A DNA stretch of 64,000 bases from Escherichia coli. Its GTDB lineage: Bacteria; Pseudomonadota; Gammaproteobacteria; Enterobacterales; Enterobacteriaceae. The translations under genes and the position numbers were made by a program. The notes below the pieces were generated by a model. That model had not been told where the DNA came from and made no database searches. It saw only the letters and a list, made by a program, of their open reading frames with translations. This document shows positions 26,013-30,712 of this stretch, piece after piece. The stretch lies in the NCBI RefSeq assembly GCF_003334785.1, contig NZ_QOWV01000013.1. The stretch is one strand, 5' to 3'. Positions within the stretch are counted from its first letter, which is position 1, and the number at the start of each line of letters is the position of its first letter.

Positions 26013-27002
26013 CTACTCTTCTTCGTTCCCGCCCTCTTCATACGGGCCAAATGGCTTCGCGGGCAGAACGATATACGTGCCTTCAAACACTGCACCCGGC
26101 GTCTCGTCGCCAAAGATTTCGACCTGCATCTGCACCCGTGCTTTTCGTCCGCGCGCCAGACGGTCGAGATCGCCGCTTAAGGCACCGAGGTCGGCTACCG
26201 CATGAGGTTTACCGCTAATCGGCTTGCTGTAGCGGATATGCGCATCCGCAAGAATAATCGTTCCGCCGAGGTGGCGTTCACGCAGCATCAGCCAGATAAG
26301 TCCCCAACCGGTGAGCGTCGCCAGTGAGAATAAACTCCCGGCAAACAGCGTATGGTGCGGATTCTGATTGCCGGTTTCTGGCATGGTAGTGATAAATTTT
26401 TGCCCGGTATATTGCTGAATGCGCACGCCCATTTTTTCACTAAGCGGGATATGTTCGTACCACGCCTGTTGCAGCTGCGCGCACCAGTCGCCGCGATGCA
26501 GAATGTCATCCAGAGTGGCGACGGGCTTAATCATCAAAAAATGGCGAATCGGCGTGGTGGTTGGCGTGGTGATTTCTCCCTGATTAACAAACCCCAGCTT
26601 GGCGAAAAACTCCACCGCGTCTTCACGGGCGCTACAGGTCACGCGCTTAACGCCTTCCTGACGCGCCACCGACTCCAGGGTCATCGCCATCAGCGTGCCT
26701 AACCCTTTGTCCTGCACGTCGGGATGAACGGCCATAAAGCGAATGGACGCTTCATTGTCGGCATTAATATACAGTCGGCCTACCGCCACCAGATTACCCT
26801 GCTCGTCGACGACCATCTGGTGATGCGCCATCGCATCCCACGCGTCGCGTTCCGAACCTTTTGGTTGATGCAGGGGCTTACGCAACATTTCCCAGCGAAA
26901 CTGATAGTAACGCTCTAATTCTTCTTCTGTTTGTGGAACCCGAAGGTGATACATAGCGATACTCTCTCTTGTTTCCCGTGACAACCCTGGAAGCTGGCTC
27001 AT
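26013..27002 (-). CDS. yiiD: GNAT acetyltransferase fused to a thioesterase-like domain
   Basis: 329-aa ORF; translationally coupled to dtd (4-nt overlap). Confidence 0.88.
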
Positions 27003-27436
27003 ACCTGCAACCAGAATGTCACGGGGCCATCATTGACCAGCGATACCTGCATATCCGCAGCGAAGCGTCCTGTTTGCGTGTTCATCTCTTGCTGACGGCA
27101 GCGTTCGACGAAATAGTCATATAACGCCTCTGCGCGATCCGGTGATGCACCTTTGGAGAAACTTGGGCGCATCCCCCGTTCGGTATCTGCGGCGAGGGTA
27201 AACTGGGAAACCACCAGCACACTGCCGCCCGCCTGTTGCACGTTGAGATTCATCTTGCCTTCGGCATCGCTAAAGATGCGGTAGCCGAGCACACGCTCGC
27301 ACAGACGGTTTGCTTTCTGTTCGTCGTCATCCTTTTCGACACCCAATAACACCAAAAGTCCCGCGCCAATTTCGCCCGTCACTTCTCCCTCCACGGTGAC
27401 GCTGGCACGGGTTACGCGTTGAATTAATGCAATCAT
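26999..27436 (-). CDS. dtd: D-aminoacyl-tRNA deacylase
   Basis: 145-aa [36 protein letters not shown]; DTD signature SQFTL. Confidence 0.93.
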
Positions 27437-28305
27437 GGTTCGTCGTCTTCTTCTTGTTCAGCTGCTTGTTTTAGTTTGCGGTATTCCCCGAGAGTGACAG
27501 TAATTTCCGCGCCAAGCAAGACGATACACCATGTCCAGTAGACCCAAACAAAGAGAATGGGGATCACCGCCAGCACACCATAAATGAGCTGATATGACGG
27601 GAACATGGTGATATAAAGCGCGAAACCTTTCTTTCCTGCTTCGAACAGGAGTGCGGCGACAAACGCGCCGACAATCGCGTCGCGGTTAGGTACGCGGATG
27701 GTAGGAACAATGCTGTACAGCAACCAGAAGGAGATCCACGACAACAGCAACGGAAAAATACGCAGCACGTTGTCGATGACAGTATTGAGATCGCTCGCCC
27801 AGCGCAGGGAGAGCAAATAGGAACTGATCGCCAGACTGGCCCCTGCCAGCAGCGGCCCCAGCGTTAAAATCATCCAGTACACGGCGAACGAGTAAATTTT
27901 TGGTCGCGCTCGTTTACTGCGCCAGATGGTATTCAACGCGCTATCGATGGAGTACATCAACAATAACGCGGTGACGATCAGCCCGCACGCCCCAACGGCG
28001 GTCATCTTGTTGGAATTGGCAACAAATTGTTCGATATACCGCTGAATAACATCGCCAGTAGCAGGCAGAAAGTTGGCAAAAATAAAGTGACGTAACTGAA
28101 TGCTGACGTCGGAAAACATGGGAAAAGCGGCGAAAAGCGCAAAAACAACGGCAACCAGCGGCACTAATGAGAGCAACGACACATAGGCAAGGTTACCTGC
28201 CAGGGTTGTCATGTTGTCCTCATCAATGCGTTGCCAGAGTAGTTTTAGCCAGGCCCATAGTGGACGGGTACGGTGCCTGGCTTTGTCCTGAATGGTTTTT
28301 AGCAT
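27433..28305 (-). CDS. yihY: YihY/BrkB-family inner membrane protein
   Basis: 290-aa polytopic membrane protein; 4-nt overlap with dtd. Confidence 0.88.
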
Positions 28306-28898
28306 AACACCTTCGCGAAATAGTCCGGGATGGTGGTTTTATCTTTCACCAGAATACTGGTAATGCCCAGCTGATTGGCTCCTTCTATATTATCGGCGTT
28401 ATCGTCGAAAAAGACCGTATCGCTGGGTGAAAAACCTTCCGCCTGCAAAACATGCTGGTAAATTCGTGCTTCAGGTTTGCGCATCCCCAGATCTTGCGAC
28501 AGATAGATATGGTCAGCAGCATCACGAATTTCCGGGTATTCTTCCGGCCAGAAGGTGGTATGCAGGCGGTTGGTATTGGAAAGCACCACCACGCGATGCC
28601 CCTGCTCACGCAGTTTATGCATGATGGCGATCACTTCCGGGCGCAGCGCAACAAACACCGCCTGCCAGCCGTGAGAGAACTGCTCGTAGCTTAGCGGTAG
28701 AGCCATCTCATGACACAGCGCCTCTGCGAACGCTTCGTCGCTAATTTCCCCACGCTCATGCTGATGAAACGCCTCCCCCATATGAAAACTCTTCTTAAGC
28801 GATGCCAGCGGAATACGCGTTAAATCGCTCCAGGCTCCCAGCACACGGTTAAAGTCGATATCGACAATCACATTACCTAAATCAAAGATATAGAGCAT
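28299..28898 (-). CDS. yihX: HAD-family alpha-D-glucose-1-phosphate phosphatase
   Basis: Track ORF 28299..28919; start at [15 protein letters not shown] (HAD motif I DxG), 199 aa. Confidence 0.88.
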
Positions 28899-28996
28899 TT
28901 TTGCCTCCTTTCGCGCCACAAGAAATTAACTGTAGCGGGAAAGGATGGGTTTGGCTATGTGGCAAGGTATGAAGCCAGGTTAACGGTCACAAAAAT

Positions 28997-29782
28997 CTAC
29001 GCGTCTTCCTGGGGAAGAATGATTTCAATTTGGCTGTCTTGTAAGCGTGATTTTAGCGCAGCGGGCGGCAGCTCGTCGGTAAAGAGCGCAGTGACCTGTG
29101 CCACGTTACCAATTTCAACCGCCGCCGAAGCATGATACTTAGTGTGATCGGCGACCAGCAGAATATTTCTCGCGTGCGCCATCATCGTTTTCACCACGTT
29201 AGCTTCGTTTACATCAAACTCCATCAACGCGCCATCGCTCTCAATCGCCCCAACGCTTGTTACCAGATAATCAGCACGAAAATCAGCCACAAAGGACGCC
29301 GCTGAAGGGCCAATGATCCCGCTATTATGAGAGCGCAACGTACCGCCGGGCACCATCACTTCAAAGCGCGGGTTGTGGTAAAGAATATGCGCCACACGCA
29401 GGCTGTTGGTGATTATCCGCAAATGATTATGGTTAAGTAACGCCCGGGCAACATGCTCAACAGTCGTACCAATGGTGATAAATATTGTTGAACCATCAGG
29501 AATATAGTCTGCCACCGCTTCGGCAATCGCTTTTTTTTCCTCGGTTTGCGAAACCTCACGCTGCTCGAACGCCGTATTAACGACGCTGGAAGCCCGACCC
29601 GCGCCACCGTGATGGCGCGTAATCAGGCCTTGCTCGCTTAATTTACGAATATCCCGGCGGACCGTCTGCGTGGAGACATCCAGCAGATTTGCCAGCTCAT
29701 CAATATTCATATACCCACGCTCGGCGATCAGCATGAGGAGTTGGTCGTGCCGCGGGTTACCGGTTAGTTCGGTAAGGCTCAT
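28997..29782 (-). CDS. yihW: DeoR-family repressor of the sulfoquinovose cluster
   Basis: Track ORF 28997..29806; start at MSLTELTGNPRHDQLL (261 aa); N-terminal HTH and DeoR C-terminal domain; also named csqR. Confidence 0.88.
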   Translation of the reverse strand: MSLTELTGNPRHDQLLMLIAERGYMNIDELANLLDVSTQTVRRDIRKLSEQGLITRHHGGAGRASSVVNTAFEQREVSQTEEKKAIAEAVADYIPDGSTIFITIGTTVEHVARALLNHNHLRIITNSLRVAHILYHNPRFEVMVPGGTLRSHNSGIIGPSAASFVADFRADYLVTSVGAIESDGALMEFDVNEANVVKTMMAHARNILLVADHTKYHASAAVEIGNVAQVTALFTDELPPAALKSRLQDSQIEIILPQEDA

Positions 29783-29815
29783 GAAAATTCCTCGAAAAAC
29801 CATCACCCTGGCATT

Positions 29816-30712
29816 TTATACAAAAAGTGACAAAAAAGATCGGGTTTGATCACAGTCAGGGATCCCGGCTCGTCCACCGGGACGTGTGCATTTTAACGCC
29901 GCTACACCGCTGGCGAAGCGGACTGACTCCGCTAAATCCCCACTTGTTGCCAGCGCCACCGCCAAAGCGCCGTGAAAAACATCACCCGCACCTGTGGTAT
30001 CTACCACATCAACTTTGAAGGCCGGTTGATGCTGACGCCCACCATTTTCCAGCCAGTCGCAGCCTGCGCTACCCTGGGTCACATAGACATGACCATTTGT
30101 GAGCGTTTGTGCCTGTTTTAGCGCACTGGCCATCTCTTTCACGCCCGTTAAGCGCGCCAGACCCGGTTCTGAAAAGGCCGCGTGATCGCTTAATGCCACC
30201 AGCTCACTGATATCCTGCGGCGTAATGTCCCCGTCCAGAACGGTCATCACACCCGCCTGACGGGCCAGGGTGAAGGCTTTTTTAGCGCCGTCGTGCCAGC
30301 GTACATCTGCCAGCACAACATCCCACTGAGAGAAATCAATTTCCTCCAACCACTCTGCGTCAGGCAGCAGATCCGGGCTGGGGTAGTTAATGATTATCCG
30401 CTCGCCTTTGGTATCCACCATGATGGCGGATTGCGAAGATTTCGCCTGGTTATACCGTTTGGTGTAACGGGTGTTAACGCCCCAGGATTCCAGCTCTGCC
30501 AGCAGGCTGTTGCCCGTGTCGTCATCACCTACGCGACCAATAAAATCGACCTGCGCCCCCAGCCTTGCCGCCGCAACCGCTGCCGTCGCCGCTGGCCCGC
30601 CACCAACTTCCGTATAATTTCTCGCCACGTATTTACCGCTCTCCGTCGGTAACCCTTCCACGTAATAGATGCGATCCATCACGGTTATACCTACACAAGC
30701 AACACGAATCAT
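29816..30712 (-). CDS. yihV: 6-deoxy-6-sulfofructose kinase (PfkB family)
   Basis: Track ORF 29816..30718; start at MIRVACVGITVMD; PfkB motifs (DTTGAGD). Confidence 0.88.
   Translation of the reverse strand: MIRVACVGITVMDRIYYVEGLPTESGKYVARNYTEVGGGPAATAAVAAARLGAQVDFIGRVGDDDTGNSLLAELESWGVNTRYTKRYNQAKSSQSAIMVDTKGERIIINYPSPDLLPDAEWLEEIDFSQWDVVLADVRWHDGAKKAFTLARQAGVMTVLDGDITPQDISELVALSDHAAFSEPGLARLTGVKEMASALKQAQTLTNGHVYVTQGSAGCDWLENGGRQHQPAFKVDVVDTTGAGDVFHGALAVALATSGDLAESVRFASGVAALKCTRPGGRAGIPDCDQTRSFLSLFV

Follow-up and report, generated by a model that had tools for sequence, protein, structure and literature searches.

The yiiD gene downstream of dtd in Escherichia coli is the known malonyl-ACP decarboxylase gene fabY/madA, most likely translated from Met17

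A predicted acetyltransferase fused to a thioesterase-like domain, encoded directly downstream of a tRNA proofreading enzyme and a membrane protein, raises the question of what this protein does and why its gene is found in such company. We addressed this question in a 64,000-nucleotide stretch of E. coli DNA (the window), for which the open reading frame list contains an ATG-to-TAG frame of 329 codons at positions 26013–27002 on the minus strand. This frame corresponds to E. coli yiiD, an already characterised gene also known as fabY and madA, and as lcmM in Salmonella (PMC13353551), and the window derives from the E. coli chromosome. Over 15 kb the region is colinear with K-12 at 99.96% identity, and the FabY, Dtd, YihY and YihX proteins are each identical to their K-12 counterparts; fabY differs from K-12 b3888 by a single synonymous base at window position 26310. 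The locus is present and annotated as fabY in 5426 of 5426 complete E. coli genomes. The coding sequence that we prefer spans 26013–26954 (Met17 to TAG, 313 aa), in agreement with the PGAP model, distant homologues and the substitution pattern, and its product matches K-12 b3888 throughout their shared part. The operon genes and features described here lie on the minus strand, and residues are numbered according to the 329-aa model, which is also the numbering of the published N214 and H216 residues (PMC13353551). The open reading frame list also includes unsupported antisense frames inside fabY, such as 26352–26702.

We hold with high confidence the overall account in which this is the known fabY/madA, the last gene of a yihX-yihY-dtd-fabY operon, encoding a decarboxylase that would start at Met17 and followed by a 3′ hairpin. 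The gene and its operon were already known and we identified no new protein-level feature; the present analysis re-discovers a gene already characterised in E. coli.

The four genes of the operon share one strand, with a 7-nt overlap, a 4-nt overlap and then, depending on the fabY start codon, either a 4-nt overlap or a 44-nt spacer. The first gene, yihX (28299–28898), encodes a HAD-family glucose-1-phosphatase (NCBIfam NF006991, 405.8 bits against a cutoff of 295) and carries the sole strong Shine-Dalgarno (SD) sequence of the operon (AAGGAGG, duplex −11.6 kcal/mol). It is followed by yihY (27433–28305), encoding a BrkB/YihY-family inner-membrane protein (NF002457, 477 bits; TIGR00765, yihY_not_rbn), the ATG of which overlaps the yihX stop codon by 7 nt (ATGCTAA) and is preceded by a weak SD (−3.9 kcal/mol). 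The D-aminoacyl-tRNA deacylase gene dtd (26999–27436; TIGR00256 equivalog, 256.5 bits against a cutoff of 101.5) overlaps the yihY stop codon by 4 nt (ATGA), and its very weak SD (−1.9 kcal/mol) together with this overlap is consistent with translational coupling to yihY. In RegulonDB, as used in PMC4421995, yihXY-dtd-yiiD is a single transcription unit. Short overlaps are commonplace in this DNA, with six other same-strand pairs in the window overlapping by 1–19 nt according to the K-12 annotation.

The ends of the transcript were less clearly marked. A consensus scan for promoters and terminators across 25200–30000 returned fewer sites than shuffled controls; within the cluster no signal exceeded expectation, and no site marked either end of the operon. 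The operon promoter presumably lies in the 98-nt csqR-yihX intergenic region (28899–28996), where we picked by eye a weak candidate, TAGCCA-17-TACAGT; this yihX promoter is a guess because the consensus scan yielded none there. At the opposite end, a 10-bp GC-rich hairpin, GAGAGGGGCG-GUGC-UGCCUCUCUC (25983–26006), begins 6 nt past the fabY stop codon. Its 86-nt context has a predicted folding energy of −28.1 kcal/mol (z = −2.3). The hairpin lacks a clean U tract and was not called by a simple terminator scan, and it probably acts as a terminator at the end of the operon or as a 3′ stabiliser. Entries for yiiD, dtd, yihX and yihY were absent from the SMRT-Cappable-seq supplements, and Rfam gave no match inside the operon; the Rfam matches that we did obtain are REP-related only and lie between fdhE and yiiF. 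Judging from these sequence signals, transcription would begin upstream of yihX, yihY and dtd would be translated by coupling through their 7-nt and 4-nt overlaps, fabY would be translated from Met17 via its own SD, and the GC-rich hairpin would mark the 3′ end of the transcript.

The grouping of these genes recurs in other genomes. A contig scan gave a set of best 80 loci, all from Enterobacteriaceae or Erwiniaceae, and the order yihX-yihY-dtd-fabY was found in 70 of the 72 loci of this set whose flank reaches yihX. The two exceptions are Mangrovibacter loci in which yihY was unmatched. More distant lineages were sampled by 12 exact-protein look-ups, with short contigs (L086 in part, L089 and L096) being uninformative. 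At 35–50% protein identity, dtd lies within ~2 kb of madA in seven of the eight informative distant gammaproteobacterial loci, and yihY and/or dtd are found beside madA in Vibrio, Moritella, Thalassotalea and others. Among the loci examined, yihX is part of the cluster only in Enterobacterales; elsewhere an alpha/beta hydrolase gene or a spermidine-synthase-like gene X replaces or interrupts the cluster. The linkage of dtd to the GNAT-fused MadA is thus conserved far beyond enterics, across gammaproteobacterial orders.

The original prediction had called the rationale for grouping this gene with dtd and yihY unclear, and this judgement stands: among the accessible papers, we found none that addresses the grouping and none that connects dtd, an N-acetyltransferase, D-amino acids and the operon. 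We somewhat favour the explanation that the linkage carries no biochemical meaning and reflects an old housekeeping operon with shared low-level expression that responds to stress or growth phase, held together by overlaps that are hard to break. The four genes belong to unrelated pathways (sugar phosphatase, membrane protein, tRNA proofreading and ACP metabolism), and the partners are exchanged between lineages, as described above for yihX. In one distant locus (L093) dtd and madA are divergent and not co-transcribed. Expression of yiiD rises in the stringent response, according to the account of Sanyal 2019, the study that discovered fabY, given in PMC13353551. However, the persistence of dtd near madA at such low protein identity, through rearrangements, is unusual for functionally unrelated genes, and dtd was not found beside the stand-alone MadB in the two contexts seen (L088 and Xanthomonas).

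Whether fabY is physically overlapped with dtd depends on its start codon, for which existing records disagree. The K-12 record places the start of fabY at the first ATG (27002–27000), giving a protein of 329 aa. This ATG overlaps the dtd TGA, and it is only with this start that the 4-nt dtd/yiiD overlap exists. The RefSeq PGAP annotation instead starts fabY at Met17 (window position 26954), giving 313 aa and a 44-nt spacer after dtd. The 48-nt stretch between these alternatives (26955–27002) represents either codons 1–16 of the 329-aa model or the dtd stop codon (26999–27001) plus a 44-nt spacer (26955–26998). Several lines of evidence make the latter more likely. The starts of all 18 distant full-length homologues coincide with Met17 or lie only a few residues from it. 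In a set of 58 unique enterobacterial sequences, substitutions in the 15 extension codons are not biased towards the third position (0.153/0.175/0.187 for the three positions), in contrast to the codons just after Met17 in the same sequences (0.041/0.035/0.243) and to the 3′ end of dtd (0.043/0/0.314). Among Enterobacterales the length of the dtd-fabY spacer varies from 18 to 80 nt. Within this spacer we identified a purine-rich block, AAGAGAGAG (26962–26970), which is nearly invariant in the 58 sequences and, lying 7–15 nt upstream of the ATG at 26954, is a probable ribosome-binding site for the Met17 start. The predicted anti-SD duplex is −5.1 kcal/mol for the Met17 site versus −3.4 kcal/mol for the poorly spaced site at the first ATG. 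The TRAINSPOTTER N-terminomics supplements had no entries for yiiD, fabY or b3888. Based on these comparisons, fabY most likely initiates at Met17 as a 313-aa protein with its own conserved purine-rich SD, 44 nt past the dtd stop codon, and the annotated K-12 start is probably 16 codons too far upstream.

The competing view is that the native form is the 329-aa protein, with ribosomes that finish dtd reinitiating at the ATGA and the 16-residue tail forming an unconstrained disordered leader. We regard this as unlikely. In its favour, the first ATG is the annotated K-12 start and the published residue numbering follows from it; the yihY and dtd genes of the same operon clearly use overlap coupling; and an in-frame start codon overlaps the dtd stop codon in ~63 of 78 loci from the best 80. 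Most core Enterobacteriaceae have an uninterrupted frame and such an overlapping start codon; the spacer lengths of 44, 47, 41, 32, 59, 50 and 80 nt are all 2 mod 3, and the frame is retained by 6 of 10 independent spacer-length variants. The upstream ATG may therefore still be used, either by itself or in addition to Met17. Against this, the extension codons lack the codon periodicity of substitution, the extension is missing from every homologue outside the family, and Cedecea, Buttiauxella and several other loci have no overlapping in-frame start. The AGG beside the first ATG lies too near to act as an SD, whereas the conserved AAGAGAGAG block is correctly spaced from Met17, the start chosen by PGAP. 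We also considered the conserved ATGA as proof of dtd-fabY coupling and rejected it, because three of the four possible bases before TGA give a table-11 start codon by chance.

With initiation at Met17, the supposed dtd/fabY overlap would disappear. The chain of genes predicted to overlap by 4 to 7 nt is accordingly retained for yihX/yihY (7 nt) and yihY/dtd (4 nt) and, for dtd/yiiD, is tied to the upstream ATG. Likewise, the predicted co-translation is plausible from yihX through yihY to dtd, given their overlaps, but doubtful from dtd to yiiD in view of the probable Met17 start with its own ribosome-binding site.

The two-domain nature of the protein was borne out by domain searches. Pfam Acetyltransf_1 (PF00583) matches residues 31–138 (8.6e-16) and YiiD_C (PF09500) matches residues 174–313 (3.6e-50, covering 143 of 144 model positions), and the NCBIfam TIGR02447 score of 164.3 bits exceeds the cutoff of 97.1. 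The AF2 model likewise contains two well-folded domains (pTM 0.55), with a pLDDT of ~52 for residues 1–10. The two domains fold independently, with a Thr/Pro-rich linker between them. In the original prediction this was a 329-aa fusion of a GNAT domain with a thioesterase-like domain; the GNAT domain and the fusion are confirmed by Pfam, NCBIfam and AF2, and the length is annotation-dependent, becoming 313 aa when counted from Met17.

The GNAT domain spans residues 17–162 (26517–26954) and is supported by Pfam (PF00583 as above; PF13673, 3.4e-11; PF13508, 4.1e-10) and by Foldseek similarity to SACOL1063 (TM 0.83–0.89, the highest value being for 5jph). The translation contains a GNAT motif A, Q97-D-K-G100-L-G102 (26697–26714), in which G100 and G102 reach at least 90% conservation across a 27-sequence alignment. 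Motif A, Q/R-x-x-G-x-G/A, is the acyl-CoA pyrophosphate-binding loop of GNAT enzymes. In the distant-homologue alignment this domain has 12 invariant residues, and its identity to distant homologues (39%) is close to that of the decarboxylase domain (40%). E51, D53 and H61 are invariant among homologues and form part of an S-E-x-D...H motif in common with SACOL1063. Judged by its sequence, the GNAT half thus retains the motif for acyl-CoA binding and equals the decarboxylase half in conservation. The GNAT domain is dispensable for decarboxylation (PMC8666670), and in Salmonella it has been implicated in the tuning of cAMP while cells are in lag phase on succinate (PMC13353551).

These features bear on a functional reading of the dtd linkage, in which the GNAT domain of MadA would share with Dtd a pathway of D-amino-acid or aminoacyl-tRNA quality control. 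One possibility is that it N-acetylates D-amino acids set free by Dtd and thereby blocks their recharging, with acetyl-CoA, or acetyl-ACP from its own C-terminal domain, as the donor, and with YihY handling the product at the membrane. In yeast, Hpa3 acts alongside Dtd1 in D-amino-acid detoxification. Hpa3 is itself a GNAT-family D-amino-acid N-acetyltransferase (PMC12273574), and the closest solved relative of the MadA GNAT domain, SACOL1063, together with an Acinetobacter homologue, is reported to transfer acetyl groups to free amino acids, for example Thr (PMC10267138). MadA has the invariant residues of the motif that it shares with SACOL1063; acetyl-ACP already serves another acetyltransferase as a high-affinity acetyl donor, namely GlmU (PMC8666670); and the deep dtd-madA synteny concerns the GNAT-fused form and not the two MadB contexts available. 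However, the connection of the GNAT domain to Dtd is purely inferential, with no paper found in our literature search that links them, and the sample of MadB contexts is tiny. Moreover, the sole phenotype known to be linked to the GNAT domain concerns cAMP and not D-amino acids (PMC13353551), the spermidine-synthase-like neighbour in other lineages equally suggests a polyamine acceptor, and similarity of GNAT folds predicts the acceptor poorly. We consider a shared pathway improbable, and slightly less probable still the specific proposal that the MadA GNAT domain N-acetylates D-amino acids, or else mis-acylated or aminoacyl-tRNA-derived products of Dtd, perhaps fed by acetyl-ACP and with YihY as its membrane partner. 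If true, this proposal would supply a substrate for the orphan GNAT domain and tie ACP metabolism to translational quality control.

The C-terminal domain (residues 171–314; 26061–26492) adopts a predicted hot-dog fold with pLDDT above 90 in the AF2 model and is assigned to malonyl-ACP decarboxylation and dimerisation based on PF09500, PDB 1t82, Foldseek and PMC8666670. The sequence of PDB 1t82 matches this domain at 2.8e-30, and Foldseek superposes the two with TM 0.94 and rmsd of 1.3–1.6 Å; it also matches P. putida MadB (8ayv, TM 0.82). The catalytic loop, N212-Q-N214-P-H216-H-T218-L-F220 (26343–26369), corresponds to N43/N45/H47/T49/F51 of MadB, and the N212, N214, H216, T218 and F220 positions are intact in the window protein. 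The 27-homologue alignment shows no variation at N212, N214 or F220 and at least 90% conservation at H216. The equivalent loop residues of MadB have been mutagenised, N45 being the invariant catalytic Asn (PMC8666670), and N214A and H216A alleles have been used in Salmonella (PMC13353551).

K-12 MadA has been characterised as a malonyl-ACP decarboxylase (Whaley et al, 2021; PMC8666670). Turnover of malonyl-ACP into acetyl-ACP and rescue of a fabH deletion were shown experimentally for the identical K-12 protein, and the acetyl-ACP product, which has lost CO2 but retains its thioester, was identified by gel and LC-MS/MS (PMC8666670). The domain dimerises, binds ACP and decarboxylates malonyl-ACP via its conserved Asn loop, and the resulting acetyl-ACP is condensed with malonyl-ACP by FabB or FabF, providing a FabH-independent entry to fatty-acid synthesis; the literature shows these steps for exactly this protein (PMC8666670). 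A synthetic-lethal phenotype of fabY with fabH has also been described (PMC13353551). That the domain is instead an acyl-CoA or acyl-ACP thioesterase, as in the old Pfam/TIGRFAM label and the thioesterase role first proposed for this protein, is exceedingly improbable: the hot-dog fold is common to many thioesterases, several Foldseek matches are putative thioesterases and the legacy family description reads "putative thioesterase", but PDB entry 8ayv was deposited under the name malonyl-ACP decarboxylase MadB, and thioesterase as the principal activity is refuted by the assays of the identical K-12 enzyme, because these give acetyl-ACP with the thioester kept and CO2 lost (PMC8666670).

No source of acetyl-ACP other than FabY/MadA is known, and the enzyme opens a route into fatty-acid synthesis that bypasses FabH, making it relevant to FabH-targeting antibiotics. 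To this our analysis adds that the annotated K-12 start is probably misplaced upstream and that dtd and madA remain neighbours across gammaproteobacterial orders, the latter not being discussed in the accessible papers. Taken together, the revised start, the dtd-madA synteny and the kinship with SACOL1063 offer a testable lead for the orphan GNAT domain.

The closest known system is K-12 MadA/FabY/YiiD itself (b3888; Sanyal, 2019; Whaley, 2021; PMC8666670), with an identical protein, the same neighbours and the same operon; the K-12 and PGAP records differ in the annotated start (329 aa versus 313 aa). The stand-alone MadB proteins of S. oneidensis (1T82), P. putida (8AYV) and Xanthomonas have the same PF09500 hot-dog fold, N-x-N-x-H-x-T-x-F loop and reaction as MadA, but lack the GNAT domain, show 26–38% identity to the C-terminal half of MadA and occur in contexts without dtd, namely L088 and the Xanthomonas cluster glt-madB-hp1-hp2-secB-gpd. 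For the N-terminal domain, the best matches are S. aureus SACOL1063 (PDB 5JQ4/5JPH) and the B. subtilis YjcF/glyphosate N-acetyltransferase group. These share motif A and the S-E-x-D...H motif with MadA (E ~4e-7, TM 0.89), but they are stand-alone proteins of ~145 aa with ~25% identity to the MadA domain, and amino-acid acetylation is reported for SACOL1063 and its homologue and not for MadA (PMC10267138). Yeast Hpa3 is an analogue of the MadA GNAT domain in concept, serving as a lead and not as a proposed family member (PMC12273574). Finally, in the LnmK-type (methyl)malonyl thioester decarboxylases, compared here by their published description, an asparagine on a similar loop also serves to decarboxylate a malonyl-type thioester, but, unlike MadA, these enzymes are built as a double hot-dog and serve secondary metabolism in polyketide pathways (PMC8666670).

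The ORF at 26013–27002 (minus strand) comprises 329 codons with an ATG start and a TAG stop, and it ends a same-strand chain in which it is preceded by ORFs identified with NCBIfam as YihX (glucose-1-phosphatase), YihY (BrkB-family membrane protein) and Dtd (D-aminoacyl-tRNA deacylase). All 5,426 complete genomes of E. coli matched this locus, and their annotation names the gene fabY (also yiiD or madA). The stretch is colinear with K-12 MG1655 (99.96% identity across 15 kb); FabY, Dtd, YihY and YihX each match the K-12 protein exactly, and fabY carries a single synonymous difference. The window therefore contains the yihX-yihY-dtd-fabY region of E. coli, which lies between the sulfoquinovose (yih) genes and yiiE/yiiF-fdhE-fdoIHG. 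The mechanical ORF of yihX (28299–28919, minus strand) begins with GTG and encodes 206 residues; the annotated ATG at 28898, giving 199 residues, seems correct because a perfect AAGGAGG precedes it.

The two-domain fusion put forward in the original prediction was borne out by profile, sequence and structure comparisons. Pfam placed Acetyltransf_1 (8.6e-16), along with two sibling GNAT models, at residues 31–138 and YiiD_C (PF09500, 3.6e-50) at residues 174–313, and the NCBIfam model TIGR02447 scored 164 bits (cutoff 97). Sequence searches of the PDB matched the C-terminal half to Shewanella oneidensis 1T82 (2.8e-30) and the N-terminal half to Staphylococcus aureus SACOL1063. An AlphaFold2 model based on 27 homologues showed two confidently folded domains, with pLDDT >90 in most blocks and lower confidence at residues 1–10, in the linker of Thr and Pro and in the acidic tail at the C terminus; its pTM of 0.55 is as expected of two domains that do not pack against each other. 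Foldseek aligned the C-terminal half with the stand-alone decarboxylase MadB (1T82, TM 0.94; also Pseudomonas putida MadB 8AYV) and the N-terminal half with SACOL1063 (TM 0.89).

The "thioesterase-like" description of the C-terminal domain is a legacy label rather than a function, because its decarboxylase activity is published and the catalytic loop is intact. Purified MadA converts malonyl-ACP to acetyl-ACP, as verified by LC-MS/MS, and acts neither as a condensing enzyme of the FabH type nor as an acetyl-CoA:ACP transacylase; the hot-dog domain alone is necessary and sufficient for this reaction and also forms the dimer (Whaley et al, 2021; PMC8666670). The key catalytic residue is Asn45 of MadB, located on a conserved loop, and the acetyl-ACP product supplies FabB/FabF and is a high-affinity substrate of GlmU (PMC8666670). 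In the window protein this loop reads N212-Q-N214-P-H216-H-T218-L-F220 (329-residue K-12 numbering), and N212, N214 and F220 are invariant in the alignment of 27 homologues.

The GNAT domain was described as a monomeric "ball on a chain", dispensable for decarboxylase activity and for rescue of a fabH deletion (Whaley et al, 2021; PMC8666670). Salmonella lacking YiiD shows a longer lag on succinate through lowered cAMP, an effect largely independent of decarboxylase activity that implicated the GNAT domain and led to the proposed name LcmM (2026 study; PMC13353551). In our alignment the GNAT and decarboxylase domains showed 39% versus 40% identity to 18 distant homologues. The former retains 12 invariant residues, including E51, D53 and H61. 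It also carries motif A (Q97-x-x-G100-x-G102), in which G100 and G102 are conserved at ≥90%. Because of this equal conservation, the invariant residues and motif A, the GNAT domain is very likely a working enzyme, as judged from its sequence.

Of the overlapping gene chain previously proposed, the yihX/yihY (7 nt, ATGCTAA) and yihY/dtd (4 nt, ATGA) overlaps are real. A strong Shine-Dalgarno sequence precedes yihX only (AAGGAGG, −11.6 kcal/mol), and its near absence at yihY (−3.9 kcal/mol) and dtd (−1.9 kcal/mol) fits translational coupling. Short overlaps are common here, with six further same-strand gene pairs overlapping within the window. The dtd/yiiD overlap is present solely in the K-12 gene model, in which the first ATG lies at 27002; PGAP RefSeq records start fabY at Met17 (26954), yielding 313 residues and a 44-nt spacer. 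Four observations favour Met17. Distant full-length homologues (34–50% identity) all start at, or a few residues from, the position aligned with it. Among 78 Enterobacterales loci the dtd stop and Met17 are 18 to 80 nt apart, with 11 different lengths, and several genera wholly lack an in-frame upstream start. In 58 unique sequences, all with the 44-nt spacer, the three codon positions vary about equally over putative codons 2–16 (0.153/0.175/0.187), whereas strong third-position bias marks both the dtd 3′ end (0.043/0/0.314) and the region after Met17 (0.041/0.035/0.243). Finally, the sole conserved block of the spacer, AAGAGAGAG, lies 7–15 nt upstream of Met17 and pairs with the anti-Shine-Dalgarno (−5.1 kcal/mol) better than any stretch preceding the first ATG. 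Translation from the first ATG would agree with the open frame and overlapping start codon found in ~63 of the 78 loci and with a frame kept in 6 of 10 spacer-length variants; this is weak evidence, because A, G or T ahead of the TGA stop always yields a start codon. There is thus a good likelihood, on these sequence comparisons, that Met17 is the main native start, and the dtd/yiiD overlap and 329-residue protein length, as opposed to the ATG-to-TAG frame itself, are probably annotation artefacts.

Under either start, dtd and fabY are separated by at most 44 nt. RegulonDB lists yihX, yihY, dtd and yiiD as one transcription unit (PMC4421995), and a 10-bp GC hairpin lies 6 nt 3′ of the fabY stop. 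The AT-rich, gene-poor islet that follows (25200–26000) contains a partial pseudogene (~25537–25653, minus strand; PGAP). The fabY-to-fdhE distance ranges from ~150 to 3,500 nt among Enterobacteriaceae, and this is therefore a variable insertion spot. yiiF (24485–24724, minus strand) and yiiE (24945–25160, minus strand) encode paralogous small ribbon-helix-helix/CopG-like proteins (40% identity across 58 residues). The ~100-nt blocks upstream of each (24762–24861 and 25200–25299) share 73% identity; the duplication therefore took in both the gene and its presumed promoter/operator. The yiiF model differs between records (219 nt in K-12 RefSeq, 243 nt in a PGAP record), a second minor disagreement over a start codon close to fabY. 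Palindromes of REP/BIME type at 24355–24437, between fdhE and yiiF, are most likely ordinary REP elements because both Rfam scores are sub-threshold (ES036, 36.8 bits, gathering score 37.6; naRNA4, 38.2 bits, gathering score 59.5).

The grouping with dtd and yihY is more than an E. coli accident. In the best 80 genomic relatives, all Enterobacteriaceae or Erwiniaceae, dtd and fabY are always adjacent. Of the 72 loci with a flank long enough to include yihX, 70 keep the four-gene order, and the other two, both from Mangrovibacter, gave no yihY match. Ten GNAT-fused representatives at 35–50% identity gave eight informative loci. The order is yihY-dtd-madA on the same strand in Vibrio, hydrolase-dtd-madA in Moritella and one further lineage, and yihY-hydrolase-dtd-madA in Thalassotalea (2-nt spacer). 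In two lineages a spermidine-synthase-like gene X, inserted in opposite orientation, separates dtd from madA, distant locus L093 has X-yihY-dtd divergent from madA, and Catenovulum/Marinifaba has X-madA with dtd not found within 5 kb. Local rearrangements notwithstanding, dtd lies within ~2 kb of madA in seven of the eight. It was not found beside stand-alone MadB in one metagenomic locus or in the published glt-madB-secB cluster of Xanthomonas; this is suggestive of dtd linkage tracking the GNAT domain, two MadB contexts being far too few to claim it.

Gene X encodes 206–265 residues, is divergent from madA in non-enteric Gammaproteobacteria and is absent from the E. coli fabY locus. It occupies the minus strand of the distant-homologue loci L084 (4276–4896), L086 (2–406), L090 (2840–3634), L091 (536–1258) and L093 (4227–4937), the last assigned by position and size only. 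The first four copies are homologous to each other (28–36% identity); the match to PRK04457 is weak and far under cutoff. The alpha/beta-hydrolase (Abhydrolase_1/Hydrolase_4, ~320–336 residues) lies directly upstream of dtd, in the slot between yihY and dtd (L085, 271–1281; L087, 2–439; L095, 3577–4545), in Moritella, Thalassotalea and one more lineage.

The MadA literature examined nowhere mentions dtd or an operon in connection with MadA. We somewhat favour an old housekeeping operon kept together by shared regulation: yiiD reportedly rises in the stringent response, according to work cited in PMC13353551, and overlapping genes are difficult to separate. A functional link, in which MadA would remove D-amino acids freed by Dtd, possibly with acetyl-ACP from its own decarboxylase domain, would account for the synteny if true, and we regard it as improbable. 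By analogy, SACOL1063, the nearest solved GNAT relative, and an Acinetobacter homologue reportedly acetylate free amino acids (PMC10267138), MadA shares their S-E-x-D...H motif, and yeast Hpa3 is a GNAT with D-amino-acid N-acetylation (PMC12273574). However, this idea stays conjectural because the spermidine-synthase-like neighbour elsewhere would point equally well to polyamines as acceptor, and the one phenotype known so far concerns cAMP.

Overall, the original prediction holds for the fusion and its linkage with yihX, yihY and dtd, fails for the thioesterase label, and probably fails for the dtd/yiiD overlap. The analysis yields a probable start-codon correction and a deeply conserved dtd-madA neighbourhood, the latter a lead that experiments on the orphan GNAT domain could follow. 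The object itself is already known as FabY/MadA/LcmM in the yihXY-dtd-fabY operon, and the deep conservation of dtd with madA is the sole result that goes beyond the literature examined.
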